Positions 1-50,877 of a stretch of 64,000 nt of DNA are shown piece by piece. Position 1 is the stretch's first letter. The number at the start of each line of letters is the position of its first letter. A program made the translations under genes and the position numbers. Where the stretch lies: assembly GCA_033759635.1 (NCBI GenBank), contig GCA_033759635.1_4528.1. One strand, given 5' to 3'. The DNA comes from a phage. The notes under the pieces were generated by a model. That model did not search any database, had not been told where the DNA came from, and saw nothing but the letters and a program-made list of their open reading frames with translations.

Positions 1-1
1 A

Positions 2-226
2 ATGGCTAAATTGATTATAGAAGGGTCTGAAGATGTTTTAAAATGTTTTGCCGCCTGGTTTAGTTGCTCAGGCGAGCAATCATTCATTGAAGCATTTAGA
101 ATGGGTGATATTACTGGAAACTATCCGACAACTGATATCACTGTACGTGGATATGGTATTAATGAGCCTATCCAATTGGTCGAATATGACCTTGCCACAG
201 ATGAGGAAATTCCTTATGTCGATTGA
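2..226 (+). CDS. hypothetical protein (74 aa; possibly 5'-truncated at window edge)
   Basis: ORF track; ATG at 2 but upstream not visible; stop overlaps next start. Confidence 0.4.
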   Translation: MAKLIIEGSEDVLKCFAAWFSCSGEQSFIEAFRMGDITGNYPTTDITVRGYGINEPIQLVEYDLATDEEIPYVD

Positions 227-482
227 AGATATTAAAGGCTACAAGCCACATACCGACGATAAAATCAGTAAAGTGAACGCTATTAAAGATGCAGAAGTCC
301 GTCTTGGATTGATGTTTGATGCTCTGATTGAAGAAGCATATATCTTAAAAGAAAATGAAACAGAGCAACAAACCAAAGAAGATATGGATGCAGTGCAGGC
401 TCTTAAGTATGCTAAGCAACATCTAAAAGAAGCTAGTATGTGGGCTTGTCGTGCGGTATTTCAACCAGAGGAAAAATACTAA
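216..482 (+). CDS. hypothetical protein (88 aa)
   Basis: Frame of track ORF 48..482; start refined to ATG 216 overlapping upstream stop (ATGTCGATTGA). Confidence 0.5.
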
Positions 483-781
483 TGGCTCAAATCCTATCAG
501 GCTTTGGAACTCATTATGAAGCATCTCGACGCATAACTGAAAGCAATCCTTTTGGCCTTGTTCCGAAGCACAAGAAAATTCAAAGCCTTGATGACTTTGA
601 GAATCGCCTATGGGCCCTCTTTAATGAGTACAAGGCATATCTGAAAGAAGACGCTGACGATTGTCTTGAAGAAGATGAGATTGCGTATTACGAACAACGC
701 CTTGAACAGCTCAAGAACTTCCACCAGGTTCGTGACGAAGTATCTAAAGCAGTTAAAAAGTTAATTCCTTTCAAAGAGTAG
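482..781 (+). CDS. hypothetical protein (99 aa)
   Basis: Frame of track ORF 440..781; start refined to ATG 482 (TAATG overlap with upstream stop). Confidence 0.5.
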
Positions 782-837
782 TTTACTTCTCCTCTAGTTG
801 TGTTACTATAGACCTGTCAACTAGAGGAGAAATCAAA
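781..837 (+). promoter_or_regulatory. early promoter / stem-loop cassette upstream of regB
   Basis: GTTTAC 781-786, 17-nt spacer, TACTAT; 10-bp IR cctctagttg (791-800) / caactagagg (818-827), right arm overlaps SD. Confidence 0.6.
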
Positions 838-1296
838 ATGACTATCAATTCAGACGTTTTTATCCGCCGTAATAAACTCCGTCGAATCTTTGAAACGGAG
901 TTCCGCAAAATAAATGCCGGTATAAAAGATGCTGCAAAGTCTCTTGGACTACCAGGCTTTCATATCAAGTATTCTCAACATCTCTTAGATCGTGCCATCC
1001 AGAGAGAAATAGATGAGAATTACGTTTTTGAATTATTTCGTAAAGTAAAAAATCATGTTAAAGAAGTTGCAGAATTTTTATCAATGCCGGCACGTCCAGA
1101 TGTTGATGAAGATTTTGTCGAAGGTGTCGAATATCGCCCAGGCCGTTTAGAAATAACTGATGGAAATCTTTGGTTAGGACTTACAGTCTGTCGCGAAAAT
1201 CCAGCATTCAAAATGAAGACTCTTCAATGTAGAATGGCTATTATTAACAGTAAACGACTACCAGGAAAAGCTTCTAAAGCAGTGATTAAAATCTAG
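838..1296 (+). CDS. regB: RegB-like sequence-specific endoribonuclease
   Basis: 152 aa; N-terminus MTIN..VFIRRNKLRR and C-terminus QCRMAIINS.RLPGKASKAVIK match recalled T4 RegB; SD GAGGAGAAA upstream. Confidence 0.75.
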   Translation: MTINSDVFIRRNKLRRIFETEFRKINAGIKDAAKSLGLPGFHIKYSQHLLDRAIQREIDENYVFELFRKVKNHVKEVAEFLSMPARPDVDEDFVEGVEYRPGRLEITDGNLWLGLTVCRENPAFKMKTLQCRMAIINSKRLPGKASKAVIKI

Positions 1297-1304
1297 AGGT
1301 AAAC

Positions 1305-1847
1305 ATGAGAAAAGCACTACTCGCTGGTCTATTTGCTCTTTCGTTATCAGCACATAGCTCCGAGCATACTTTTAGTAATGTCCAACTCGATAACTTGAAT
1401 TATGCTTATCAGTTTGGGGAACAGTTTTCTAAGGACGGAAAATTTAAAACGCATGAAAATATGCATAAGAAAGGACTTGGATACATAATGGCCGCAATAC
1501 TATGGCAAGAATCATCTGCCGGTATTAATCTTAAAGATAAGAAAGGTCACCATGCGTATGGAATGTTCCAAAATTATCTACCGACAATGAGGGCAAGAAT
1601 TAACCAGCTTGGTTATAATATGTCTGATGCCCAAATTAAGAAAATGCTATCTAAGCGGTCTAATTCGGCCAGATGGGCTTATATCGAATTTTCTTATTGG
1701 TTAAATATACATAACGGGGATATAAGAAAAGCTATATCCTCATATAATGCGGGGTGGAAGACAAGTGCTGGAAGTAAATATGCTTCTGAAGTCCTAGAAA
1801 AGGCTAATTACCTTAAATCAAATAAACTACTGGAAATAAAAGAATGA
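1305..1847 (+). CDS. secreted lytic transglycosylase-like protein
   Basis: N-terminal signal peptide (MRKALLAGLFALSLSA); SLT-like motifs (WQESS, YNAG); 180 aa. Confidence 0.5.
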   Translation: MRKALLAGLFALSLSAHSSEHTFSNVQLDNLNYAYQFGEQFSKDGKFKTHENMHKKGLGYIMAAILWQESSAGINLKDKKGHHAYGMFQNYLPTMRARINQLGYNMSDAQIKKMLSKRSNSARWAYIEFSYWLNIHNGDIRKAISSYNAGWKTSAGSKYASEVLEKANYLKSNKLLEIKE

Positions 1848-2191
1848 CCAAAATGTTAGCTTTAATAGTTGGCTTGGTTTCATTTAACGCTCTTGCTAAT
1901 ACTACATATACTGATGTAACGGAGTATACAAACAGAACGGCGTCTGATTATTGTGGTAAAAGTCAAGAGTGTAAAGTAGATTTTTCACAAAAATTGTTAT
2001 ATGCGTATAAAGACGGAGAAAAAGATGGGGCGTCTAGTAGGTTCAAGGCGTCTACCTTAATTAAAAGATACTATAAAAAATGGCAAATATTAGAATGCTC
2101 GGTGGCGGAACCTAAAGATAAGGCAGCATGCAATTCTATGGTGGACCGTCTAGTTGACTCTTATACTAGAGGACTTGCAGCAAGTGATTAA
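1844..2191 (+). CDS. secreted small Cys-containing protein
   Basis: Signal peptide MTKMLALIVGLVSFNALA; 115 aa; ATGA overlap with upstream gene. Confidence 0.5.
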   Translation: MTKMLALIVGLVSFNALANTTYTDVTEYTNRTASDYCGKSQECKVDFSQKLLYAYKDGEKDGASSRFKASTLIKRYYKKWQILECSVAEPKDKAACNSMVDRLVDSYTRGLAASD

Positions 2192-2651
2192 AAACTATAT
2201 CAAGGGCGATATTGTCGCCCTGTTTTCTAAAGGTAATAATATTGCTCATGGGTGCAATTGTTTTCATACAATGGGTGCCGGTGTAGCAGGTCAATTGGCA
2301 AAGGCTTATCCAAAAATTTTAGAAGCCGATAAACTTCAAACCGAATTCGGAGACGAGTCTAAACTCGGGACTTATTCGGTTTATGAAAAATATTTTAAGA
2401 CCCATAAAGCTTATTGCTTTAATCTTTATACACAGTTTGAGCCGGGACCTAATTTTGAGTACTCTGCTTTAATGAATTGTATAATAGAATTAAATGAATT
2501 CGGAAAAAATAAGATAACAAAGCCTGTAATTTATATGCCAAGAATTGGTGCAGGTATTGGTGGTGGAAACTGGGATGTCATCGAAGAGATTTTAGATACG
2601 TATTCCACTAAACTAGAAATTGTGATTGTTGATTGGGAACCATTGTTATGA
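2154..2651 (+). CDS. macro-domain-like protein (putative ADP-ribose binding/hydrolase)
   Basis: Glycine-rich motifs NNIAHGCNCFHTMGAGVAGQL and IYMPRIGAGIGGGNW resemble macro domain; start uncertain (TTG 2154 or GTG 2184). Confidence 0.5.
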   Translation: MTLILEDLQQVIKNYIKGDIVALFSKGNNIAHGCNCFHTMGAGVAGQLAKAYPKILEADKLQTEFGDESKLGTYSVYEKYFKTHKAYCFNLYTQFEPGPNFEYSALMNCIIELNEFGKNKITKPVIYMPRIGAGIGGGNWDVIEEILDTYSTKLEIVIVDWEPLL

Positions 2652-2860
2652 ATGTGCATTATCCTCACCCGTATGACCCAAAGAATAAAGCAGTTATTAT
2701 TCGTGAATGGGAAGAAATTCGTCAGACTAAGTGTCCTATTAATAGTCCACATGATGTCGATAAAGACTACATTGGAACATTCGTTGAATATACCTTTATT
2801 GATAAGAAAGGTCGTAAACAGCATGTAGAAGAATACTGCTTAAAGGTGACATGGTTATGA
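2648..2860 (+). CDS. hypothetical protein (70 aa)
   Basis: Start refined to ATG 2648 (ATGA overlap with upstream stop). Confidence 0.5.
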   Translation: MNVHYPHPYDPKNKAVIIREWEEIRQTKCPINSPHDVDKDYIGTFVEYTFIDKKGRKQHVEEYCLKVTWL

Positions 2861-3042
2861 GTTTAAGTAAAGAACAAAAAGACAAACTCTTTTCTCTTAT
2901 CCATGAAGTTATGGATAAAAATAGCGAATTGGAAAAAGTTTGTAATGAATGTGGTCCTTTTAATACTGACGAATACGAAGAACTGTGTAAAGATTTTGAC
3001 GATAAAGAGCAAGAACTTATTGATTATATAAATTCATTATGA
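2851..3042 (+). CDS. hypothetical acidic protein (63 aa)
   Basis: ORF track; SD-like AAAGGTGA before ATG. Confidence 0.5.
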   Translation: MVMSLSKEQKDKLFSLIHEVMDKNSELEKVCNECGPFNTDEYEELCKDFDDKEQELIDYINSL

Positions 3043-3236
3043 TTACTCGCGAACAAAAGAACGAAATATTATTTTTAGTTGGTGAAATTATTAGTTTAGA
3101 AAAGGATTTGTCTTTTGAAATATCTTCTGAATATGGAGATGCCGAAACATATTACGAATTAGTAAAATCTATCAATAAAGCTGAAAATGATTTAGAAACA
3201 TATTTAGAAAATTTAACTAAGGACTCTTATGGCTAG
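3039..3236 (+). CDS. hypothetical protein (65 aa)
   Basis: ORF track; ATGA overlap with upstream gene. Confidence 0.5.
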   Translation: MITREQKNEILFLVGEIISLEKDLSFEISSEYGDAETYYELVKSINKAENDLETYLENLTKDSYG

Positions 3237-3810
3237 TTTAATTTTTACCTATGCCGCTATGAACGCTGGTAAGTCTGCTTCATTACTTACTGCCGCACAT
3301 AACTATAAAGAACGTGGCATGGGTGTATTAGTTCTTAAACCTGCTATTGATACTCGAGATTCAAAAGGTGAAATAGTCTCTCGTATTGGTATTCGTCAGG
3401 ATGCCAATATAATTACAAAAGACATGGACATCTTTGAATTCTATAAATGGGCTGCAGCACAAAAGGATATTCATTGTGTATTTGTTGACGAAGCTCAGTT
3501 CTTAACTACTGAAAAGGTGTATCAACTTAGTCGTATTGTTGACGTATACAATGTGCCAGTAATGGCATATGGACTACGAACAGATTTTAAAGGTAATCTA
3601 TTTGAAGGTTCTCAAGCATTAATGGCTATTGCCGATAAGCTTGTTGAACTTAAAGGTGTCTGTCATTGCGGTAAAAAGGCCACAATGGTAGCTAGAGTCA
3701 CGGAAGATGGACTTCCAATTACAGATGGTGGACAAATTGAAATTGGTGATACCGATAGATACGTGTCATTATGCCGGAAGCATTGGAATGATTTGACAGG
3801 GATGTTATAA
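3229..3810 (+). CDS. tk: thymidine kinase
   Basis: 193 aa; P-loop AAMNAGKS; near-complete match to recalled T4 Tk (MASLIFTYAAMNAGKSASLL...CRKHW). Confidence 0.9.
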   Translation: MASLIFTYAAMNAGKSASLLTAAHNYKERGMGVLVLKPAIDTRDSKGEIVSRIGIRQDANIITKDMDIFEFYKWAAAQKDIHCVFVDEAQFLTTEKVYQLSRIVDVYNVPVMAYGLRTDFKGNLFEGSQALMAIADKLVELKGVCHCGKKATMVARVTEDGLPITDGGQIEIGDTDRYVSLCRKHWNDLTGML

Positions 3811-3837
3811 ATACTAATATCTAACCAAGAGGTATAT

Positions 3838-4050
3838 ATGCAGCAATTAAACGAAAGACAACTTCGTAATCTTACTGTAACCCAATTGGATGAAATCCGA
3901 AGAGAATTAGGACATTCTATTTCTCATTTAAATGAGGATATCCGTCAAACTGGTTCTAAAGCTGATTATACACGCAAGCGCAAGCTGGAAAAATACCTCA
4001 CAGATGTTAAGGCCGTCCAAAGGCGAAAAATAAATACTGGCCAAAATTAA
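3838..4050 (+). CDS. hypothetical protein (70 aa; positional equivalent of T4 rI.-1)
   Basis: ORF track; position between tk and rI. Confidence 0.5.
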
Positions 4051-4062
4051 CAGGAGGCCTAT

Positions 4063-4365
4063 ATGGCCTTAAGAGCGATAGCTGTCATAGCGATGCTGGG
4101 GTTTTTTGCAGCAACAACTCCTATCGTTGGTACTGCACATATTGACCCATATTTTGATAACTTTATGGAATCAGGGATTAAAAACGTATATACTTTGTTT
4201 GAAATTCAAAATGTCGAGAATTCTGAAAAATTCTATAAGTATATGGCAAAGCATTACAAAAATAGCCCCTGTGATGATGCATTTGAATGTCATGAACAAG
4301 GCATAAAAACTGCCAGACAATTTGCTGAGTTCATGAAAATAAAATTAGAGCCTACATCTATCTAA
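4063..4365 (+). CDS. rI: lysis-inhibition regulator RI (antiholin)
   Basis: 100 aa; N-terminal signal anchor MALRAIAVIAMLGF; matches recalled T4 RI (..DPYFD.FMESGI..VY.LFE..); two ORFs downstream of tk as in T4. Confidence 0.7.
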   Translation: MALRAIAVIAMLGFFAATTPIVGTAHIDPYFDNFMESGIKNVYTLFEIQNVENSEKFYKYMAKHYKNSPCDDAFECHEQGIKTARQFAEFMKIKLEPTSI

Positions 4366-11729: not shown

Positions 11730-12680
11730 ATGACACGTTCACATTACATTGAATACTTTGCCGGTCTTATCGCTAACGTTCATGCCCAGCGTGCTGTTGG
11801 TGCACTAGGATTTGATGTTCCACACCGAGATGTAGTAAGTGGTATTCTTCGCGATTTTGGTACATACACAGGTCAAGAAAATCATATCTGTAAAGATACT
11901 CAGAATGCGTATTCTCATTCATTAGGGACACTGCTTCAATGGTTCAAACGTTCTCGTTTATTATCTTCTACTGTAGCTCGCGATAACATTAAAAACTTTA
12001 TGAAACCGAGCTTTATTAAATCTGTGACATCTAAAACTGATTTGGTTGAATTCACTATTATTAATGATGTTAAAAAGACTCATTTGGCTGATTGGTTATC
12101 TACCATTCCTGAAACTAAATTCGCTGATAAATTTGCTTGTGAATTCAATAACCAAGTGAATATGCTTTTTAAACATTCTCGTAAATTATTCACGGGCGGT
12201 GATGGTCGTACAAATAAAGTTCATGTTAAAGATTGGGTTACTGCAGTATTCAAACCGACCGGTAATGGTAACGCATCATTATCAATTGATATCCAGGTTC
12301 CTTATTACTACTCACGTAATCTCGGTACCATGAAAGCTGAAGAAATTAATAAGCATAACAAAACCGTTCGTTCATTGTCTTATAAACTTATTACATTGTT
12401 AGAGACTATGGATGTTGTTGAAACGTTCGACGAATCCGAAGATAACGGTTCAATGTTATACAGTTCTCGCACCCGAATTAAGCTGAAGAACCCTAACGAG
12501 TATAAACTTAAGACTATTAAAGAACCTAAAGTAGAAAAAGTTGACAACTTGAGCGAAGAACGTGAATATCTCAAATCTCGTCTGAAAGAAGTCGAAGCCC
12601 AGATTAAAGAACAGACTAAATCGTTAAAAGCTCTGAATGCGAAAGCGGACGGTTTACGAAATGCCATTGAGGTGTTATAA
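11730..12680 (+). CDS. hypothetical protein with C-terminal coiled coil (316 aa)
   Basis: ORF track; preceded by GTTTACAACCAAGGATGGTTGGAGTATAAT cassette. Confidence 0.6.
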   Translation: MTRSHYIEYFAGLIANVHAQRAVGALGFDVPHRDVVSGILRDFGTYTGQENHICKDTQNAYSHSLGTLLQWFKRSRLLSSTVARDNIKNFMKPSFIKSVTSKTDLVEFTIINDVKKTHLADWLSTIPETKFADKFACEFNNQVNMLFKHSRKLFTGGDGRTNKVHVKDWVTAVFKPTGNGNASLSIDIQVPYYYSRNLGTMKAEEINKHNKTVRSLSYKLITLLETMDVVETFDESEDNGSMLYSSRTRIKLKNPNEYKLKTIKEPKVEKVDNLSEEREYLKSRLKEVEAQIKEQTKSLKALNAKADGLRNAIEVL

Positions 12681-12985
12681 TGAAACTACGTCTTTTAGAG
12701 GATATTGATATGAGCACTAATCATGGCTTGGTTAAGTTTATTGACGATAGTTCAAAGATTGAATTTGTTCAGCGAGATAAAATCCACGGTGAAGAAGAGT
12801 TCGTTCCTCCAGCATGGAACGAAATAATGAAAATGGTTGAACGACGTGAAAATGCTGCCAAATCAGCAGCAAAACATCCATGCCCGAAATGTGGAACTAT
12901 CCAAGTCCAACTGGTTAACTGGACCACTGATAACTTGAAATTGAAATGCCGTAAATGCTTCCACAAATTTGAGAGAATATTATAA
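12680..12985 (+). CDS. zinc-ribbon protein (101 aa)
   Basis: C-terminal CPKCG..x17..CRKC four-Cys ribbon; TAATG overlap. Confidence 0.5.
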   Translation: MKLRLLEDIDMSTNHGLVKFIDDSSKIEFVQRDKIHGEEEFVPPAWNEIMKMVERRENAAKSAAKHPCPKCGTIQVQLVNWTTDNLKLKCRKCFHKFERIL

Positions 12986-13398
12986 TGAGATATAGCCTTC
13001 GTTGTTTTATCGCAGCTTTAGTTTTTGCCATTATTCCATTCATTTGGAACAGTCAGAATACTTACATGGAAACTAAAGTAATTCCTGTGGAGGTAGTGGA
13101 ATTAATCTCAGGCCAATCTACAGGAAAATATTCTAAATTAGAATTTATTGCAGTCTATAAAGATGAGCAAGGACGAGTTTTTGACAGGCGTGTATCACCG
13201 TCGTTTTATACGCTTCTGAATAAAGGTGATACGATAGCTATAGAAATTCGTGAGATGGATATCAAACAAACTACTAAAGATAACTTGATTTGGTTCTTTG
13301 GTACAGTGTTGTTGGTTTCTATCTGTATCACAGGTTTTATTACATGTATTGTATTTGGCATTGCATATTTAATCGATGAAAGGAAAAATAATGTTTAA
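12985..13398 (+). CDS. hypothetical membrane protein (137 aa)
   Basis: Hydrophobic N- and C-terminal helices. Confidence 0.55.
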   Translation: MRYSLRCFIAALVFAIIPFIWNSQNTYMETKVIPVEVVELISGQSTGKYSKLEFIAVYKDEQGRVFDRRVSPSFYTLLNKGDTIAIEIREMDIKQTTKDNLIWFFGTVLLVSICITGFITCIVFGIAYLIDERKNNV

Positions 13399-15050: not shown

Positions 15051-15524
15051 ATGTTATTATCTGGCAAATTATACAAAGAAGAAAAACAAAAATTTTATGA
15101 TGCACAGAACGGTAAGTGTCCTATTTGCCACCGTGAATTAGACCCTGATGTTCAAGGTAACCATCTTGACCACGACCACGAGTTAAACGGGCCAAAAGCC
15201 GGTAGAGTTCGTGGATTACTCTGTAATCTGTGCAACGCAGCAGAAGGCCAAATGAAGCATAAGTTCAACCGTTCTGGTCTTAAAGGTCAAAACGTTGATT
15301 ACCTCGAATGGCTTGAAGCTCTTCTTGCTTATTTGAAACAAGATTATTCTGATAATAATATCCATCCTAATTTTGTTCCAGACAAAACTAAAGAGTTCTC
15401 AAGACTAGGTAAAGAGGAAATGATGGCTGAGATGCTTCAAAGAGGATTTGAATATAATGAATCTGATACTAAAACACAATTAATAGCTTCATTCAAAAAG
15501 CAGCTTAGAAAGAGTTTAAAATGA
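15051..15524 (+). CDS. 49: endonuclease VII (Holliday junction resolvase)
   Basis: 157 aa; Zn-binding CPICH..x..CNLCN; near-identical to recalled T4 gp49. Confidence 0.9.
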   Translation: MLLSGKLYKEEKQKFYDAQNGKCPICHRELDPDVQGNHLDHDHELNGPKAGRVRGLLCNLCNAAEGQMKHKFNRSGLKGQNVDYLEWLEALLAYLKQDYSDNNIHPNFVPDKTKEFSRLGKEEMMAEMLQRGFEYNESDTKTQLIASFKKQLRKSLK

Positions 15525-17338
15525 AAATTGAAAAAGAAATTGAAGGATTAATTCATAAAACTAATAAAGATCTTTTAAACGAGAATGCTAATAAAGATTC
15601 TCGTGTTTTTCCAACTCAACGGGACCTTATGGCTGGTATTGTGTCTAAGCACATTGCCAAAAATATGGTCCCGTCTTTTATTATGAATGCGCATGAAAGC
15701 GGAATCATTCACATGCATGATATTGATTATTCTCCTGCTCTTCCGTTTACTAATTGTTGTTTAGTCGATTTAAAGGGGATGCTTGAGAATGGATTTAAAT
15801 TAGGCAATGCTCAAATTGAAACGCCTAAATCGATTGGTGTTGCTACTGCAATTATGGCACAAATTACTGCACAAGTTGCTTCCCATCAGTATGGCGGAAC
15901 TACATTTGCGAATGTCGATAAAGTTCTTTCTCCTTATGTTAAACGTACATACGCTAAACATGTTGAAGATGCAGAAAAATGGCAAATACCAGACATTCTG
16001 AATTATGCTCAATCTAAAACAGAAAAAGACGTATACGATGCATTCCAAGCTTATGAATATGAGGTAAATACTCTTTTTAGTTCAAACGGTCAAACTCCTT
16101 TTGTTACCATAACATTTGGAACAGGAACTGATTGGACTGAACGAATGATTCAGAAGGCAATTCTTAAAAACCGCATTAAAGGTCTTGGTCGTGATGGAAT
16201 AACTCCTATTTTTCCTAAACTTGTTATGTTTGTTGAAGAAGGTGTTAATCTTTATAAAGATGATCCGAACTATGATATTAAACAACTTGCGTTAGAATGT
16301 GCAAGCAAAAGAATGTATCCTGACATTATTTCGGTTAAGAATAATAAAGCTATTACTGGTTCTTCAGTTCCGGTTTCTCCAATGGGCTGCCGTAGTTTCT
16401 TGAGTGTATGGAAAGATTCGACTGGTAATGAAATTCTTGATGGACGCAATAATCTTGGTGTTGTAACATTGAATCTTCCTCGCATCGCGTTAGATTCTTA
16501 TATTGGAACACAGTTCAATGAACAGAAATTTGTTGAGCTATTTAATGAACGAATGGATCTGTGCTTTGAAGCCTTGATGTGTAGAATTAGTTCCTTAAAA
16601 GGAGTTAAAGCGACTGTTGCTCCTATTCTTTACCAAGAAGGTGCATTCGGGGTTCGTCTTAAACCTGATGACGACATAATTGAGTTATTTAAAAACGGTA
16701 GAAGTTCAGTGTCTTTAGGATACATTGGTATTCACGAATTGAATATTCTTGTCGGACGTGATATTGGACAAGAAATTTTAACTAAAATGAATGCTCATCT
16801 TAAACAGTGGACCGAAAGAACTGGATTTGCTTTTAGTTTGTATTCTACTCCTGCTGAAAACTTGTGTTATCGTTTCTGTAAACTCGACACAGAAAAATAT
16901 GGAAGTGTAAAGGATGTTACTGATAAAGGCTGGTATACTAATAGTTTCCATGTTTCAGTAGAAGAAAATATTACTCCGTTTGAAAAGATTTCTCGTGAAG
17001 CGCCATATCATTTCATTGCGACAGGTGGTCACATTTCTTATGTTGAACTTCCTGATATGAAAAATAACCTAAAAGGTCTTGAGGCTGTATGGGATTATGC
17101 TGCACAACATTTAGATTATTTTGGTGTTAATATGCCAGTAGATAAGTGTTTTACATGTGGAAGTACCCATGAAATGACTCCTACTGAAAACGGATTTGTT
17201 TGTTCAGTTTGTGGAGAAACTGATCCTAAAAAGATGAACACAATAAGAAGAACATGCGGCTATCTGGGAAATCCGAACGAACGCGGATTTAATCTCGGTA
17301 AAAATAAAGAAATAATGCATAGGGTTAAACACCAATGA
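15521..17338 (+). CDS. nrdD: anaerobic ribonucleoside-triphosphate reductase
   Basis: 605 aa; glycyl-radical region RTCGYLGNP near C-terminus; ATGA overlap with gene 49; continuous ORF. Confidence 0.9.
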   Translation: MKIEKEIEGLIHKTNKDLLNENANKDSRVFPTQRDLMAGIVSKHIAKNMVPSFIMNAHESGIIHMHDIDYSPALPFTNCCLVDLKGMLENGFKLGNAQIETPKSIGVATAIMAQITAQVASHQYGGTTFANVDKVLSPYVKRTYAKHVEDAEKWQIPDILNYAQSKTEKDVYDAFQAYEYEVNTLFSSNGQTPFVTITFGTGTDWTERMIQKAILKNRIKGLGRDGITPIFPKLVMFVEEGVNLYKDDPNYDIKQLALECASKRMYPDIISVKNNKAITGSSVPVSPMGCRSFLSVWKDSTGNEILDGRNNLGVVTLNLPRIALDSYIGTQFNEQKFVELFNERMDLCFEALMCRISSLKGVKATVAPILYQEGAFGVRLKPDDDIIELFKNGRSSVSLGYIGIHELNILVGRDIGQEILTKMNAHLKQWTERTGFAFSLYSTPAENLCYRFCKLDTEKYGSVKDVTDKGWYTNSFHVSVEENITPFEKISREAPYHFIATGGHISYVELPDMKNNLKGLEAVWDYAAQHLDYFGVNMPVDKCFTCGSTHEMTPTENGFVCSVCGETDPKKMNTIRRTCGYLGNPNERGFNLGKNKEIMHRVKHQ

Positions 17339-17805
17339 ATTATGATAGATTTTATCCTTGCGATTTTGTGAATGGCCCTGGTTGCAGGGTCGTTCTTTTC
17401 GTTACAGGTTGTTTGCATAAATGCGAAGGGTGTTATAATAAATCAACATGGAATGCTAGAAATGGTATTCCATTCACTGGTGAAACACTAGAACAATTAA
17501 TTGAATGTTTGAATAATGATTATATAGAAGGATTAACTATAACCGGAGGAGACCCTCTCTATCCTGATAACCGAGATGTTATTCACTCTGTAGTTCAAAC
17601 TATTAAAAATCTTTATCCCAATAAAAGCATTTGGTTGTGGACAGGATATACGTTTGAAGATATTAAACAACTAGAAATGCTTAAATATGTTGATGTTATT
17701 ATTGATGGGAAGTATGAGAAAAATCTTCCGACCAAAAAACTGTGGCGAGGATCAGATAATCAGCGACTTTGGTCAAATACCGATGGGGTGTGGAAACATG
17801 ATTAA
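17335..17805 (+). CDS. nrdG: anaerobic RNR activating enzyme (radical SAM)
   Basis: 156 aa; Cys-rich N-terminal region (FVTGCLHKCEGCYNK) consistent with the activase Fe-S site; ATGA overlap with nrdD. Confidence 0.85.
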   Translation: MNYDRFYPCDFVNGPGCRVVLFVTGCLHKCEGCYNKSTWNARNGIPFTGETLEQLIECLNNDYIEGLTITGGDPLYPDNRDVIHSVVQTIKNLYPNKSIWLWTGYTFEDIKQLEMLKYVDVIIDGKYEKNLPTKKLWRGSDNQRLWSNTDGVWKHD

Positions 17806-17911
17806 ATTGAATTACATTATGGACACTATAAATGATATGATTTTTCATTTTGGCCCAGAATTTTATTCGCAATATAGTTTAGTGCTTATCAATGCTTGGT
17901 TAATTAATTAA
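17798..17911 (+). CDS. small ORF (37 aa)
   Basis: ATG 17798 overlapping nrdG stop; same frame as track ORF 17687..17911. Confidence 0.3.
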   Translation: MIKLNYIMDTINDMIFHFGPEFYSQYSLVLINAWLIN

Positions 17912-17919
17912 GGGTAAAT

Positions 17920-18135
17920 ATGTATAAATTTCGTAAAGGTTTAGCTGATTTTCTTACAACTGTAACGTTCTTTTTGTTTATGGCAGTTGGAGCTATTTTT
18001 CTTATTCCTTTTACTGGTGTATTTTTCGTGATTAGTTTAATTTCTCCAGAAAAGGGCTTATCTTCTAATGAGTTCAATGAGCGTCTGGATAAAATTACTA
18101 ACAAACTGAATTCTGTTCTTGATAAAAAGGCTTAA
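17920..18135 (+). CDS. small membrane protein (71 aa)
   Basis: Hydrophobic core FLTTVTFFLFMAVGAIFLIPFTGVFFVISLI. Confidence 0.5.
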   Translation: MYKFRKGLADFLTTVTFFLFMAVGAIFLIPFTGVFFVISLISPEKGLSSNEFNERLDKITNKLNSVLDKKA

Positions 18136-44573: not shown

Positions 44574-45224
44574 ATGATTTATTATATGCACAAAAACGCG
44601 CCATTTAAATATGGTAAATTTCCTAATGCACAATGTTATAATATAACGCCGAATGAAAATAATAACGGATACCATATTGGTGTAATTTTTGTAATTGTTA
44701 AAGATAACGAAATCGTTGCCTGGGCAGATTTTAAAGGTACAACATATGATGTTAATCCTGTGCCTTTCACATATTACAATATAATGGATTTGGCATATGA
44801 TTATAATTGGTTTACTCATGACACGTTGGCTCATATTGAAGGTGTAGGATTTGACATCTCTTATTCTAGCTATTCGTTATGTCCTATGAGCCGAGCTCAC
44901 GGTAAAGATGTATCATATCTTTCAATTCGGAAACGTGTAAACTTCAAACGTAGTACAGAGTATGTTGGTGGACTCTTTGTTAAAGATAATAAAATAACCC
45001 GTATTAGTTATCCTTTAAGTGTAGATCAAAAAGATGTTGATGTTGATTTAGACTTAACTGAAAGTAACATTAATCGTATTGCTTCTGTATATTTTGATAT
45101 CGATGAAAAAATTGTAGTGTGTGGATACGAATTACCACTTGAAGAAAAGGCTGAAGCAATTGAAGTCGAATTAGAAATTTCTGTTGATGACCAAATATTT
45201 AATGCATTTATGAATCGAGGTTAA
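44574..45224 (+). CDS. hypothetical protein (216 aa)
   Basis: Start refined to ATG 44574. Confidence 0.55.
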   Translation: MIYYMHKNAPFKYGKFPNAQCYNITPNENNNGYHIGVIFVIVKDNEIVAWADFKGTTYDVNPVPFTYYNIMDLAYDYNWFTHDTLAHIEGVGFDISYSSYSLCPMSRAHGKDVSYLSIRKRVNFKRSTEYVGGLFVKDNKITRISYPLSVDQKDVDVDLDLTESNINRIASVYFDIDEKIVVCGYELPLEEKAEAIEVELEISVDDQIFNAFMNRG

Positions 45225-49629: not shown

Positions 49630-50211
49630 ATGACATGTCAATCTGAACTTCAAGAACGTGAATATCTCGCAGCACTAATTGATGATAAATTCACTAAACA
49701 AGAACAAAACATTCTCTGGGCTTGCACTGATTATAAGGAAGACCCAGATTTCCACTATGAATTAGACCATCTTGTTCGTAAGCATATGACTTCTACAGTA
49801 CCAGTAGAACTCTATCGTGGTGTAACTCCAGAAGAAGTAGAACGTCTTTCCCTTCTTTCTGTTGGATGCCATTGGTCTCCTGGACGAGTAACATCGTTCA
49901 CAACTGATTTCAGTACAGCTCGTCAATTCTCTGGGAGATGGGAATATCAGACGTACACTATTCTTAGTCTCAGGAATGCTCCATTCATTTTTGATTACTA
50001 CCAAAACATGGTTAACATTGTACTCGCCGGAAAGAACCCTAAGCATGTTATGGAAGAAAAACGTGTTGACGTCCTAGATATGATTGAATCTGAACAAGAA
50101 TACATGGTCTCAGGTATCTCTAGATTTGAGATTGTAGAAATTGAAGACTTAGAATATGACCCTTTATCTCGACTATACAAAATCATTCATTTAAAAATGT
50201 TGAATTTTTAG
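49630..50211 (+). CDS. ADP-ribosyltransferase (R-S-E type), ModB-like by position
   Basis: 193 aa; LYRG (Arg), SFTTDFSTA (STS-like), EQEYMV (catalytic Glu) motifs; paralogue of next gene. Confidence 0.6.
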   Translation: MTCQSELQEREYLAALIDDKFTKQEQNILWACTDYKEDPDFHYELDHLVRKHMTSTVPVELYRGVTPEEVERLSLLSVGCHWSPGRVTSFTTDFSTARQFSGRWEYQTYTILSLRNAPFIFDYYQNMVNIVLAGKNPKHVMEEKRVDVLDMIESEQEYMVSGISRFEIVEIEDLEYDPLSRLYKIIHLKMLNF

Positions 50212-50268: not shown

Positions 50269-50877
50269 ATGTTTATGCCGTATAATGAATGTGAAATTGA
50301 GGAAATGGTTCGACGTGCTCAATGTCCAGACTATCAGGACGAACTTCAGTACAAAATAGATGAGCAATTCAGCGACATTGAACAAAGTGTACTATGGCAA
50401 TGTATGGAAAACAAGCCTGGTAGCATTCAACAAGATTTAAGTGCAATTGTTCGTAGAAATTGGACTTCTTCTGTTCCTGAGACAATGTATCGTGGAATCT
50501 CTAAGAAAACTATGGCCACACTCGATGATAAAGGCATTGGTAGTATTATTAAATTTGATAGAGTAATGAGCTTCAGCCCGGTGTTTGGTGTAGCACGTAA
50601 CTTTGCTTCATATAATTTTTATGGAACATTTAATATGTTCTGCATCAAAGATGCACCATTTGCTTTCAACTTCCGTGAACATATGCTTAACATGATTCTG
50701 GCTGCGCCATCTTGTGAGTTCAATGGAGCTTTCCCTGAAGCGACAAGACGGTCTAATGCTAGACTTATATCTGACGAATGCGAATTTATGCTCCCTATAG
50801 GGACTACACTGCGTGTAGATTCTATTATTCAAGATGGGCGTTATACAATCTGGAATCTGTCTATTGTCGGTTACTGA
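50269..50877 (+). CDS. ADP-ribosyltransferase (R-S-E type), ModA-like by position
   Basis: 202 aa; MYRG, SFSPVFGVA, ECEFML motifs. Confidence 0.6.
   Translation: MFMPYNECEIEEMVRRAQCPDYQDELQYKIDEQFSDIEQSVLWQCMENKPGSIQQDLSAIVRRNWTSSVPETMYRGISKKTMATLDDKGIGSIIKFDRVMSFSPVFGVARNFASYNFYGTFNMFCIKDAPFAFNFREHMLNMILAAPSCEFNGAFPEATRRSNARLISDECEFMLPIGTTLRVDSIIQDGRYTIWNLSIVGY

Follow-up and report, generated by a model that had tools for sequence, protein, structure and literature searches.

Introduction

The DarG antitoxin, human TARG1 and SCO6735 of Streptomyces coelicolor are macrodomain proteins that all cut thymidine-linked ADP-ribose (PMC9411070; PMC5179494). More specifically, SCO6735 acts in this way on DNA and can save cells from DarT (PMC9411070), and TARG1 removes both thymidine- and uracil-linked ADP-ribose (PMC9411070; PMC13036486). 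Phages carry such proteins as well: phiKZ gp104, the chimallivirus AdfM, is a single macrodomain that strips T-ADP-ribose in vitro and gives protection from DarTG2, being expressed late and imported into the phage nucleus (PMC13309987). In phage T4, loss of adfA and adfN leaves full DarTG2 resistance (PMC11825919), and the T4 requirement for tk.4 fills the gap left by this residual resistance. When a T4 transposon library was grown on a DarTG2 host, tk.4 was the single significantly depleted gene, and a clean tk.4 knockout was DarTG2-sensitive, so that the gene was renamed adfM, for "anti-DarT factor macrodomain" (2025 preprint, bioRxiv 10.1101/2025.11.20.689424). This genetic evidence comes from a preprint and applies to the T4 protein and one DarTG2 system.

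The present analysis concerns an open reading frame (ORF) in a 64,000-nucleotide stretch of phage DNA (GenBank assembly GCA_033759635.1, contig GCA_033759635.1_4528.1), hereafter the window, which is 97.6% identical to Mosigvirus SHSML-52-1 and belongs to a T4-like phage. A first-pass annotation, made from the sequence alone, had read the ORF at 2154..2651 (+) as a macrodomain-like protein because of two glycine-rich motifs, HGCNCFHTMGAGVAGQL and IGAGIGGGNW; the ORF is present and holds both motifs as quoted.

Results

The window gene and its orthology with T4 tk.4

The first-pass annotation missed that this ORF is a named and annotated T4 gene, which appears in GenBank and RefSeq under the labels "Tk.4", "phosphatase" or "macro domain protein". 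The product is identical to T4 Tk.4 at 131 of 155 residues (85%) over the full length and with zero gaps. The two proteins share their length, neighbourhood and invariant residues, N25 and Q84 included, and differ by 24 substitutions, for example in glycine loop 2, where T4 has K127 and the window copy G127. The order vs-tk.4-tk.3-tk.2-tk.1-tk (the regB-vs-tk cluster) is common to the window, T4, JS98 and a RefSeq relative; as judged from sequence and this shared gene order, the window gene is therefore the ortholog of T4 tk.4 (adfM). The macrodomain finding is correct, yet it was already known, since the T4 ortholog has been published under the name adfM as protective against DarTG2. "Tk.4" is not mentioned in the Aravind-group survey of viral NAD/ADP-ribose systems (PMC9503650), and in the literature searched it occurred together with "macrodomain" only in the HIDEN-SEQ preprint.

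The end of the ORF at 2651 stands as first given, whereas the start at 2154 does not, being only the first possible TTG. The most likely start of tk.4 is the GTG at 2184, because it is homologous to the T4 ATG, follows a conserved GAGGA by about 10 nt and overlaps the vs stop codon; the same coding sequence is annotated, as "phosphatase", in the RefSeq relative NC_031090 (97.6% identical). The TTG was rejected on homolog alignments, which match the long 165-aa ORF from residue 11 onward only, on the correspondence of the T4 ATG with the GTG, and on the RefSeq annotation of the relative; the extension itself is the 3' end of vs, read in another frame. The T4 gene thus starts with ATG and the window copy with GTG, its phage being a Mosigvirus-like relative and not T4. 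Since the vs stop overlaps the tk.4 start, vs and tk.4 belong to one transcription and translation unit. A sigma-70 promoter scan of positions 1..4200 returned 15 sites against 14.6 expected in shuffled sequence, that is, no excess, and bears neither way on a dedicated tk.4 promoter. A hairpin at 2203..2221 is a candidate site of transcript termination or pausing. The features are collected in Table 1.

Table 1. Position of tk.4, its neighbours and its conserved motifs in the window
Feature	Position	Strand	Basis or remark
vs (valyl-tRNA synthetase modifier), upstream gene	1844..2191	+	ORF list; annotation of T4 and of the relative
In-frame 5' extension (TTG at 2154), probably untranslated within Tk.4	2154..2183	+	Homologs begin at residue 11
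GAGGA, Shine-Dalgarno-like, 10 nt 5' of the GTG start, kept in T4	2169..2173	+	T4 DNA alignment
tk.4/adfM coding sequence, single-domain macrodomain, 155 aa plus stop; GTG start most likely	2184..2651	+	85% identity to T4 Tk.4; Pfam Macro; AlphaFold2; RefSeq
Asn25 codon, HGCNC motif	2256..2258	+	Nearly invariant in the family
Glycine loop 1, M30-G31-A32-G33, predicted to bind diphosphate/ADP-ribose; first motif of the first-pass annotation	2271..2282	+	MAFFT alignment
N80-L-Y-T83-Q84 motif	2421..2435	+	Column alignments, 88 family members
Glycine loop 2, P119-R-I-G-A-G-I-G-G-G-N-W130; second motif of the first-pass annotation	2538..2573	+	Alignment of macrodomains
tk.3, tk.2, tk.1 and tk, 3' of tk.4, the start of each overlapping the preceding stop	2648..3810	+	ORF list; annotations

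Fold and class

Similarity to macrodomains was seen by HMM and by structure prediction alike. In the profile search that the first-pass annotation had proposed, Pfam Macro (PF01661) scored above its gathering threshold (E=2.2e-6, 28.1 bits against 22, profile positions 2-117 of 118), and PHROG 335, a family labelled "phosphatase", matched with E=7e-67. The sequence matches in the PDB were macrodomains only, the best being BT1257 (6e-11, and 5.9e-18 with the family profile). The AlphaFold2 model (pLDDT 96.0, pTM 0.91) is predicted to form an alpha/beta/alpha sandwich of six strands and five helices around a central mixed beta-sheet, and it can be superposed on macrodomain structures already solved. 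Foldseek gave a probability of 1.0 for TARG1, Poa1p, DarG, BT1257 and SCO6735, with E-values of 3.7e-10 for TARG1, 1.4e-7 for BT1257, 2.8e-6 for SCO6735 and 1.1e-7 and 2.3e-7 for the DarG proteins of Thermus aquaticus (TaqDarG) and Mycobacterium tuberculosis (MtbDarG); 138 PDB chains matched at E<=0.001, and the 50 listed among them were either macrodomains or designs based on one. Tk.4 falls in the TARG1/ALC1-like class, as a stand-alone macrodomain.

Comparison with DarG, TARG1, phiKZ AdfM and SCO6735

Human TARG1/OARD1 (PDB 4J5R/4J5S) is the best structural match, of similar size and with 22-25% identity. The DarG macrodomain (T. aquaticus 5M31/5M3E; M. tuberculosis 5M3I) shares fold and class with Tk.4 (Foldseek 1e-7, TM about 0.75) at about 20% identity, and the DarG models match the macrodomain part (PADLOC, E=9e-9; NCBIfam, E=8e-8). 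However, with 31.9 bits the match to the DarG equivalog NF048014 stayed below the cutoff of 250 and covered model positions 4-146 of 338 only, and the C-terminal DarT-binding domain and adjacent darT of DarG are absent for tk.4, whose neighbours are vs and tk.3. The phiKZ AdfM (gp104; PMC13309987) bears the same name and also counters DarTG2 as a single phage macrodomain, but it is DarG-like, and its PDB sequence matches are to DarG only (9e-25). Between phiKZ gp104 and Tk.4, BLASTP aligned 23 residues (E=6e-4) and hhalign against the family profile gave 96% probability; over the catalytic strand, the hhalign alignment of the Tk.4 family with gp104 was set aside, as it was misaligned with a gap opposite T-Q.

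Catalytic columns were taken from MAFFT alignments that included fragments of DarG, TARG1, BT1257 and SCO6735 recovered from the PDB search output; as a check on SCO6735 numbering, V25, K34, Q85, K89 and K93 all agreed with the recovered fragment at an offset of +3. Asn25 shares its column with the Asn of the DarG TVN motif (N22) and with N23 of phiKZ AdfM, and DarG N22A (PMC5179494) and phiKZ AdfM N23A (PMC13309987) impair activity. In loop 1, G31 and G33 are invariant among Tk.4, SCO6735, BT1257, TARG1, DarG and phiKZ AdfM; in loop 2, P119 and G122 do not vary among any of the macrodomains compared, and G124 and W130 hardly do. DarG and Tk.4 have in common the distal-ribose-pocket Asn and both glycine loops, and presumably the same substrate, DarT2-modified thymidine.

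DarG and Tk.4 differ in the N-L-Y-T-Q motif, in which all 88 family members have the same N80, Y82 and Q84. The Gln84 column holds Lys in TARG1 (K84), in phiKZ AdfM (K78) and in DarG (TaqDarG K80), where K80A is inactive (PMC5179494). The H82/W83 of DarG are likewise replaced, by Glu/Pro, and at the columns of the TARG1 dyad Lys84/Asp125 the profile alignment places Gln84/Gly126. NLYTQ aligns instead with ANMIGQ of SCO6735 and BT1257, whose N-x-x-x-Q places a Gln opposite TARG1 Lys84; in SCO6735 this is Gln85, an essential residue whose Q85A and Q85E substitutions are inactive (PMC9411070). SCO6735 (PDB 5E3B) and BT1257 (Bacteroides, PDB 2FG1/2AFC) are stand-alone, Gln-type, ALC1-like and cellular proteins. 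Tk.4 differs from the former: identity is only 23%, and SCO6735 has a long mobile loop with K89/K93 and the important Lys34; Tk.4 has a short loop, FEPGPN, and at the column of SCO6735 K34 and DarG K29, a Lys of importance in both, it has Ala32 (Ser32 in T4). As read from the alignments, the invariant Gln84 at the Lys position of DarG, TARG1 and phiKZ AdfM across the Tk.4 family is a new refinement.

A further column comparison bears on the historical annotation, by which Tk.4 would be an ADP-ribose-1''-phosphate phosphatase resembling Poa1p or an O-acetyl-ADP-ribose deacetylase. The T4 annotation of tk.4 reads "phosphatase; contains A1pp phosphatase motif", in line with the PHROG 335 label, and Poa1p is among the top sequence and structure matches. 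Moreover, the Poa1p residues mutated in PDB 6LFS and 6LFT, His23 and Ser30, correspond to the near-invariant His22 and to Thr29 of Tk.4. The phosphatase annotations, however, are homology transfers. ADP-ribose-1''-phosphate stems from Tpt1-type tRNA splicing chemistry, which is not used by T4 PNK/Rnl repair, and phosphatase or deacetylase side activities in vitro are common among macrodomains without being their role. The sole recorded phenotype is DarTG2-specific (bioRxiv 10.1101/2025.11.20.689424). A metabolite-directed role is therefore very unlikely, although phosphatase activity may exist as an extra, since His22/Thr29 stand at the positions of the Poa1p residues.

Discussion

We propose that Tk.4/AdfM is a hydrolase of thymidine-ADP-ribose that serves as a phage-borne stand-in for DarG with Gln-type chemistry, a reading to which we assign a probability of roughly 0.78. 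The gene would be expressed from the vs-tk.4-tk string with its overlapping stop and start codons. In a host with DarTG2, infection frees DarT2, which ADP-ribosylates thymidines of phage single-stranded DNA and so blocks replication. The two glycine loops of Tk.4 would then hold the ADP-ribose and the enzyme would cut the thymidine-ribose bond, restoring the phage DNA and acting in effect as a replacement for the DarG antitoxin. Removal of DarT2-added ADP-ribose by Tk.4 is the most likely mechanism, and it is the inferred step of this scheme. The lysine mechanism proposed for TARG1 and DarG, by way of a lysyl-ADP-ribose adduct, is impossible in Tk.4 because the invariant Gln84 replaces the Lys; the chemistry is likely that proposed for SCO6735, in which the Gln would position the substrate and an activated water would attack. 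Activity on single-stranded DNA is not directly transferable from DarG or SCO6735, as Tk.4 has neither their Lys residues nor the lysine-rich mobile loop of SCO6735. In the literature searched, a biochemical assay of any Tk.4-type protein was not found. An AdfA homolog (T4 gp61.2; 64% identical) lies in the same window at 44574..45221, and its presence along with tk.4 in one phage fits a layered anti-DarT armament.

Protection without catalysis is conceivable, because SCO6735 Q85A still inhibits DarT by binding (PMC9411070). Tk.4 might then act chiefly as a stoichiometric inhibitor, bound to DarT2 or to the DNA that DarT2 modifies, rather than through hydrolysis of ADP-ribose on DNA; full-length DarG K80A (PMC5179494), like the dead SCO6735 Q85A, inhibits DarT in vitro, and the catalytic Lys of DarG is absent from Tk.4. 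On the other hand, the isolated DarG macrodomain with K80A fails to inhibit DarT (PMC5179494), and Tk.4, at 155 aa, is without a DarT-binding C-terminal domain. The strictest conservation falls on the ADP-ribose pocket (N25, G31, G33, Q84, G122 and G124), as expected of an enzyme, and a binder is disfavoured because DarT2 proteins are very divergent, with about 20-26% identity between systems (PMC13309987). We consider such an inhibitor improbable and retain the hydrolase as the preferred reading.

The first-pass annotation had also suggested that the protein, as an eraser in a phage with two R-S-E ADP-ribosyltransferases of its own, could tune host protein ADP-ribosylation or counter NAD/ADP-ribose-based defences; the second suggestion agrees with the T4 ortholog and DarTG2, while the first, read as a pairing of the eraser with those transferases, is not supported. 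The two transferase ORFs (49630..50211 and 50269..50877) are real and share the window with tk.4. A Pfam search of both returned no match; they were identified as ModB/ModA-type through PHROGs (both match PHROG 832, "RNA polymerase ADP-ribosylase", E about 1e-37) and by aligning them with ModA and ModB of T4, with 36% and 32% identity to ModB and ModA, aligned R, S-x-[ST] and E-x-E motifs, and a position directly upstream of srd as in T4. If Tk.4 undid the marks of Alt, ModA and ModB, it could tune host-protein ADP-ribosylation during infection. However, T4 Alt, ModA and ModB modify arginine specifically. Enzymes of the ARH/DraG type remove ADP-ribose from arginine; macrodomains are not known to do so. 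The removal of ADP-ribose from acidic protein residues by SCO6735 and TARG1 (PMC9411070) shows that macrodomains of this kind can act on proteins, but the T4 screen found tk.4 conditionally required specifically with DarTG2 (bioRxiv 10.1101/2025.11.20.689424), and tk.4 lies about 47 kb away from the mod genes in a separate cluster. The phage distributions are mismatched as well. A Tk.4-like macrodomain is found in 2,801 phage records and a Mod-like transferase in only about 990-1,080, and the latter were detected solely in T4-like phages of enterobacteria; carriers of the former include Pseudomonas, Vibrio, Acinetobacter and Aeromonas phages and genomes of 85-87 kb, such as Felixounavirus, and many phage groups with the macrodomain show no detectable Mod homolog. 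Because the Mod enzymes modify arginine and the phage counts differ, a link between writer and eraser is extremely unlikely.

It has also to be considered whether Tk.4 would reverse other base-linked ADP-ribosylation, for example uracil-ADP-ribose placed on RNA by other transferase-based defences. Uracil-ADP-ribose on ssRNA is hydrolysed by TARG1, by DarG and above all by SCO6735, a Gln-type enzyme (PMC13036486). The Tk.4 family is moreover scattered across many unrelated phage groups. CmdTAC, an mRNA ADP-ribosyltransferase system, reportedly restricts T-even phages, so these phages evidently fail to neutralise it. This broader function seems scarcely probable, and hydrolysis of thymidine-ADP-ribose remains the reading that we favour. 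A sponge or degrader of signalling nucleotides (Thoeris, CBASS or other) was rejected as unsupported by fold class or literature; the T4 anti-CBASS gene is 57B/acb1 and not tk.4 (bioRxiv 10.1101/2025.11.20.689424).

As a discovery the present finding is minor, since public records already say macrodomain or phosphatase and the anti-defence role of the T4 ortholog is published. It adds a data point, in that an anti-DarTG2 gene is kept in Mosigvirus-like T-even phages together with an AdfA homolog. Beyond this, Gln84 stands at the Lys position and Gln is also found in SCO6735, so that T4-type AdfM was probably recruited separately and is not a stripped-down DarG. The fuller picture is more tentative, and we put it slightly below even odds: T4-type AdfM would be a separately recruited Gln-type macrodomain (N-x-Y-T-Q, short loop) and chimallivirus AdfM a Lys-type DarG derivative, giving at least two phage routes to DarT2 reversal with unlike chemistry, and the Gln-type substrate range might be wider. 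The "DarG-like" wording of the preprint hides this probable mechanistic and evolutionary difference of the Tk.4 family. If confirmed, one name, AdfM, would span two unrelated lineages, and DarG-lysine-based inhibitors or escape routes would not carry over to these phage enzymes. If the Gln-type range, as in SCO6735, is indeed wider, it may take in ADP-ribose on thymidine in DNA, on uracil in RNA and on Glu/Asp in proteins, which would explain why the family is found in about 2,800 genomes spread over many unrelated phage groups.

Results

Over its first 8 kb, the window shares 97.6% identity with Shigella phage SHSML-52-1 (Mosigvirus, Tevenvirinae), and the source is a T4-like phage. The longest ORF at the locus under study (165 aa from a TTG) is a mechanical maximum only. 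The true start is most likely the in-frame GTG at 2184, giving 155 aa, because this codon lies exactly opposite the T4 tk.4 ATG in a DNA alignment, follows by about 10 nt a GAGGA that is also present in T4, and overlaps the stop of vs, the preceding gene. The RefSeq CDS of SHSML-52-1 spans the same 2184..2651, and alignments with homologs in other phages begin no earlier than residue 11 of the 165-aa ORF. The ORF and both glycine-rich motifs quoted in the first-pass annotation were recovered, while its start at 2154 was replaced. Gene order (regB, vs.1, vs, the ORF, tk.3, tk.2, tk.1, tk) is the same in T4 and JS98, and an alignment with T4 Tk.4 shows 85% identity across the full 155 residues with zero gaps; on these grounds, the ORF is assigned as the tk.4 ortholog. 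Public records label such proteins "Tk.4", "phosphatase (A1pp motif)", "macro domain protein", or "O-acetyl-ADP-ribose deacetylase".

Coordinates of the features discussed
Feature	Coordinates	Strand	Remark
Longest ORF	2154..2651	+	TTG start
tk.4 (predicted CDS)	2184..2651	+	GTG start
Chain vs, tk.4, tk.3, tk.2, tk.1, tk	1844..3810	+
Start/stop overlaps, vs to tk chain	1844/1847, 2184/2191, 2648/2651, 2857/2860, 3039/3042, 3229/3236	+	ORF list, relative's annotation
Hairpin in tk.4	2203..2221	+
AdfA (T4 gp61.2) homolog	44574..45221	+	candidate
Mod-type ORF, ModB-like	49630..50211	+	predicted
Mod-type ORF, ModA-like	50269..50877	+	predicted
Anaerobic ribonucleotide reductase large subunit, two CDS	15132..15677, 16663..17994		NC_031090 annotation
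Homing endonuclease gene	15918..16688		NC_031090 annotation; window coordinates probably the same
phiKZ gp104	12518..13006		phiKZ record

The genes from vs to tk follow one another without a break, each start overlapping the preceding stop by 4–8 nt, an arrangement consistent with translational coupling. Within the 5' end of tk.4 lies a strong hairpin of terminator-like appearance, AGGGCGAU-AUU-GUCGCCCU followed by GUUUUCU, with a folding energy of -13 kcal/mol (z=-3.2 vs shuffles). The same 8-bp stem occurs in T4, JS98 (57% protein identity), and phage Brandy (44%), where the U·G top pair becomes A-U and the loop differs; Enterobacter phage RZH no longer has the stem. The stem hinges on the choice of GGC (Gly) and GCC (Ala) codons in the motif KGD[IL][VI]AL. 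The hairpin could serve in attenuation or mRNA stability between vs and tk.4, or simply result from conservation of the peptide. Elsewhere, the annotation of SHSML-52-1 (NC_031090) divides the anaerobic ribonucleotide reductase large subunit into two CDS that flank a homing endonuclease gene; the whole region, 15132..17994, probably has the same coordinates in the window.

Every available test identifies the protein as a macrodomain. Pfam Macro (PF01661) gave 28.1 bits (gathering score, 22), with nearly the whole profile covered, and PHROG 335 matched at E=7e-67. PDB sequence searches returned macrodomains only (BT1257, TARG1/OARD1, SCO6735, Poa1p, and DarG; best E-value 5.9e-18 with the family profile as query). 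The AlphaFold2 model, built with 88 homologs, reached a mean pLDDT of 96.0 and a pTM of 0.91, and its top Foldseek matches in the PDB were TARG1 (3.7e-10), Poa1p, T. aquaticus and M. tuberculosis DarG, BT1257, and SCO6735. Viral nsP3/Mac1 and MacroD/Af1521-type macrodomains ranked below all of these, which places the protein in the TARG1/ALC1-like class.

Twelve residues (C26, G33, A35, D49, G62, N80, Y82, Q84, P119, I121, G122, and G124) do not vary among 88 aligned family members, whose identity to the window protein is 36–97%; the nearly invariant residues include H22, G23, N25, T83, and W130. The family was aligned with fragments of TARG1, BT1257, SCO6735, both DarG macrodomains, and phiKZ gp104 taken from the PDB-search output and the phiKZ record; the numbering of the SCO6735 fragment agrees with five positions that its paper cites (V25, K34, Q85, K89, and K93). 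The catalytic column holds glutamine in the Tk.4 family (Gln84), SCO6735 (Gln85), and BT1257, and lysine in TARG1 (Lys84), T. aquaticus DarG (Lys80), and phiKZ AdfM (Lys78). In a profile alignment, Gly126 of Tk.4 occupies the position of TARG1 Asp125, and N25, the counterpart of DarG N22 and phiKZ N23, is retained. Taken together, these residues make Tk.4 a Gln-type enzyme whose active site is not DarG-like.

Discussion

TARG1 catalysis uses a Lys84/Asp125 dyad (PMC9411070), and DarG K80A is inactive (PMC5179494). SCO6735, lacking both TARG1 dyad residues, is still efficient on T-ADP-ribose; Q85A and Q85E each abolish its activity, and its authors put forward a water-mediated mechanism (PMC9411070). 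Nevertheless, Tk.4 is not simply SCO6735-like, because the long loop with lysines found in that protein is missing and Ala32 stands in the column of SCO6735 K34 and DarG K29. Nor does Tk.4 qualify as a DarG on other tests: the NCBIfam DarG equivalog gives it 31.9 bits (cutoff 250), and both a C-terminal DarT-binding domain and a darT gene adjacent to tk.4 are absent. In contrast, phiKZ gp104 matched only DarG among PDB sequences (9e-25), and its BLASTP comparison with Tk.4 gave a single 23-residue local match (E=6e-4). The name AdfM thus covers two lineages, Tk.4-type (Gln) and phiKZ gp104-type (Lys), which, from these sequence comparisons, look like separate recruitments.

DarT2 modifies ssDNA by adding ADP-ribose to thymidines, which blocks replication; the macrodomain of DarG undoes this modification (PMC5179494). 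In a T4 transposon library on a DarTG2 host (HIDEN-SEQ), only tk.4 was significantly depleted, and a clean knockout was DarTG2-sensitive; the authors saw structural likeness to M. tuberculosis DarG, renamed the gene adfM, and proposed that T4 AdfM takes ADP-ribose off DNA (bioRxiv 10.1101/2025.11.20.689424). In the literature searched, "Tk.4" and "macrodomain" occurred together only in that preprint. The phenotype supplies what was missing from an earlier study, in which T4 lacking both adfA and adfN kept full resistance to DarTG2 (PMC11825919). In separate work, phiKZ gp104, a different phage macrodomain, hydrolysed T-ADP-ribose in vitro and shielded chimalliviruses from DarTG2 (PMC13309987).

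It is conceivable, by analogy, that Tk.4 protects by binding without catalysis, as catalytically dead SCO6735 inhibits DarT (PMC9411070); however, the DarG macrodomain alone with K80A gives no DarT inhibition (PMC5179494), and the conservation pattern of Tk.4 is that of a catalytic pocket. A side activity behind the old phosphatase label is possible, given that His22 and Thr29 stand where Poa1p has His23 and Ser30, but no substrate for it is expected during T4 infection and no phenotype supports it. Analogy with SCO6735 also makes a wider activity on uracil-ADP-ribose RNA plausible (PMC13036486).

The first-pass annotation further paired this eraser with two R-S-E ADP-ribosyltransferases of the same phage. 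Both ORFs match PHROG 832 ("RNA polymerase ADP-ribosylase"), sit just upstream of srd as in T4, have counterparts annotated as ModA/ModB in relatives, and align with T4 ModB and ModA at the R, S, and E-x-E motifs, and are thereby identified as Mod-type transferases. Their identity to T4 is only 36% (ModB) and 32% (ModA), whereas Tk.4 is far closer to its ortholog; they are separated by 57 nt, whereas T4 modB and modA overlap; and Mod identities across phage records fall into discrete bands (>=90%, ~54–63%, and ~30–46%), which suggests fast-evolving or exchanged alleles. The partnership itself is unlikely. Alt/Mod-type enzymes modify arginine, and cleavage of this linkage is not known for any macrodomain. 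In addition, the T4 tk.4 phenotype is DarTG2-specific, and tk.4 and the mod genes lie ~47 kb apart. Distribution differs as well: Tk.4-like macrodomains occur in 2,801 phage records, among them phages of Pseudomonas, Vibrio, Acinetobacter, and Aeromonas and 85–87-kb genomes such as Felixounavirus, compared with Mod-like genes in about 990–1,080, all T4-like phages of enterobacteria (tblastn for Mod-type transferases only, E<=1e-5, which very divergent ones may escape). The earlier interpretation thus holds for the macrodomain and the anti-defence role, but not for the Mod partnership.

The window also carries a homolog of T4 gp61.2 (AdfA, an anti-DarT factor; 64% identical over 208 aa, tblastn), which makes it a second candidate anti-DarTG gene. 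The gene tk.4 is already known and annotated in the T4 family, and its function was published recently; all that this analysis adds is the Gln-for-Lys active site and, by implication, an origin separate from that of DarG-type phage macrodomains. With orthology drawn from this analysis, the phenotype from T4, and the chemistry inferred, the best-supported function of the window gene is anti-DarTG2 counter-defence, in which its product would enzymatically reverse DNA ADP-ribosylation.
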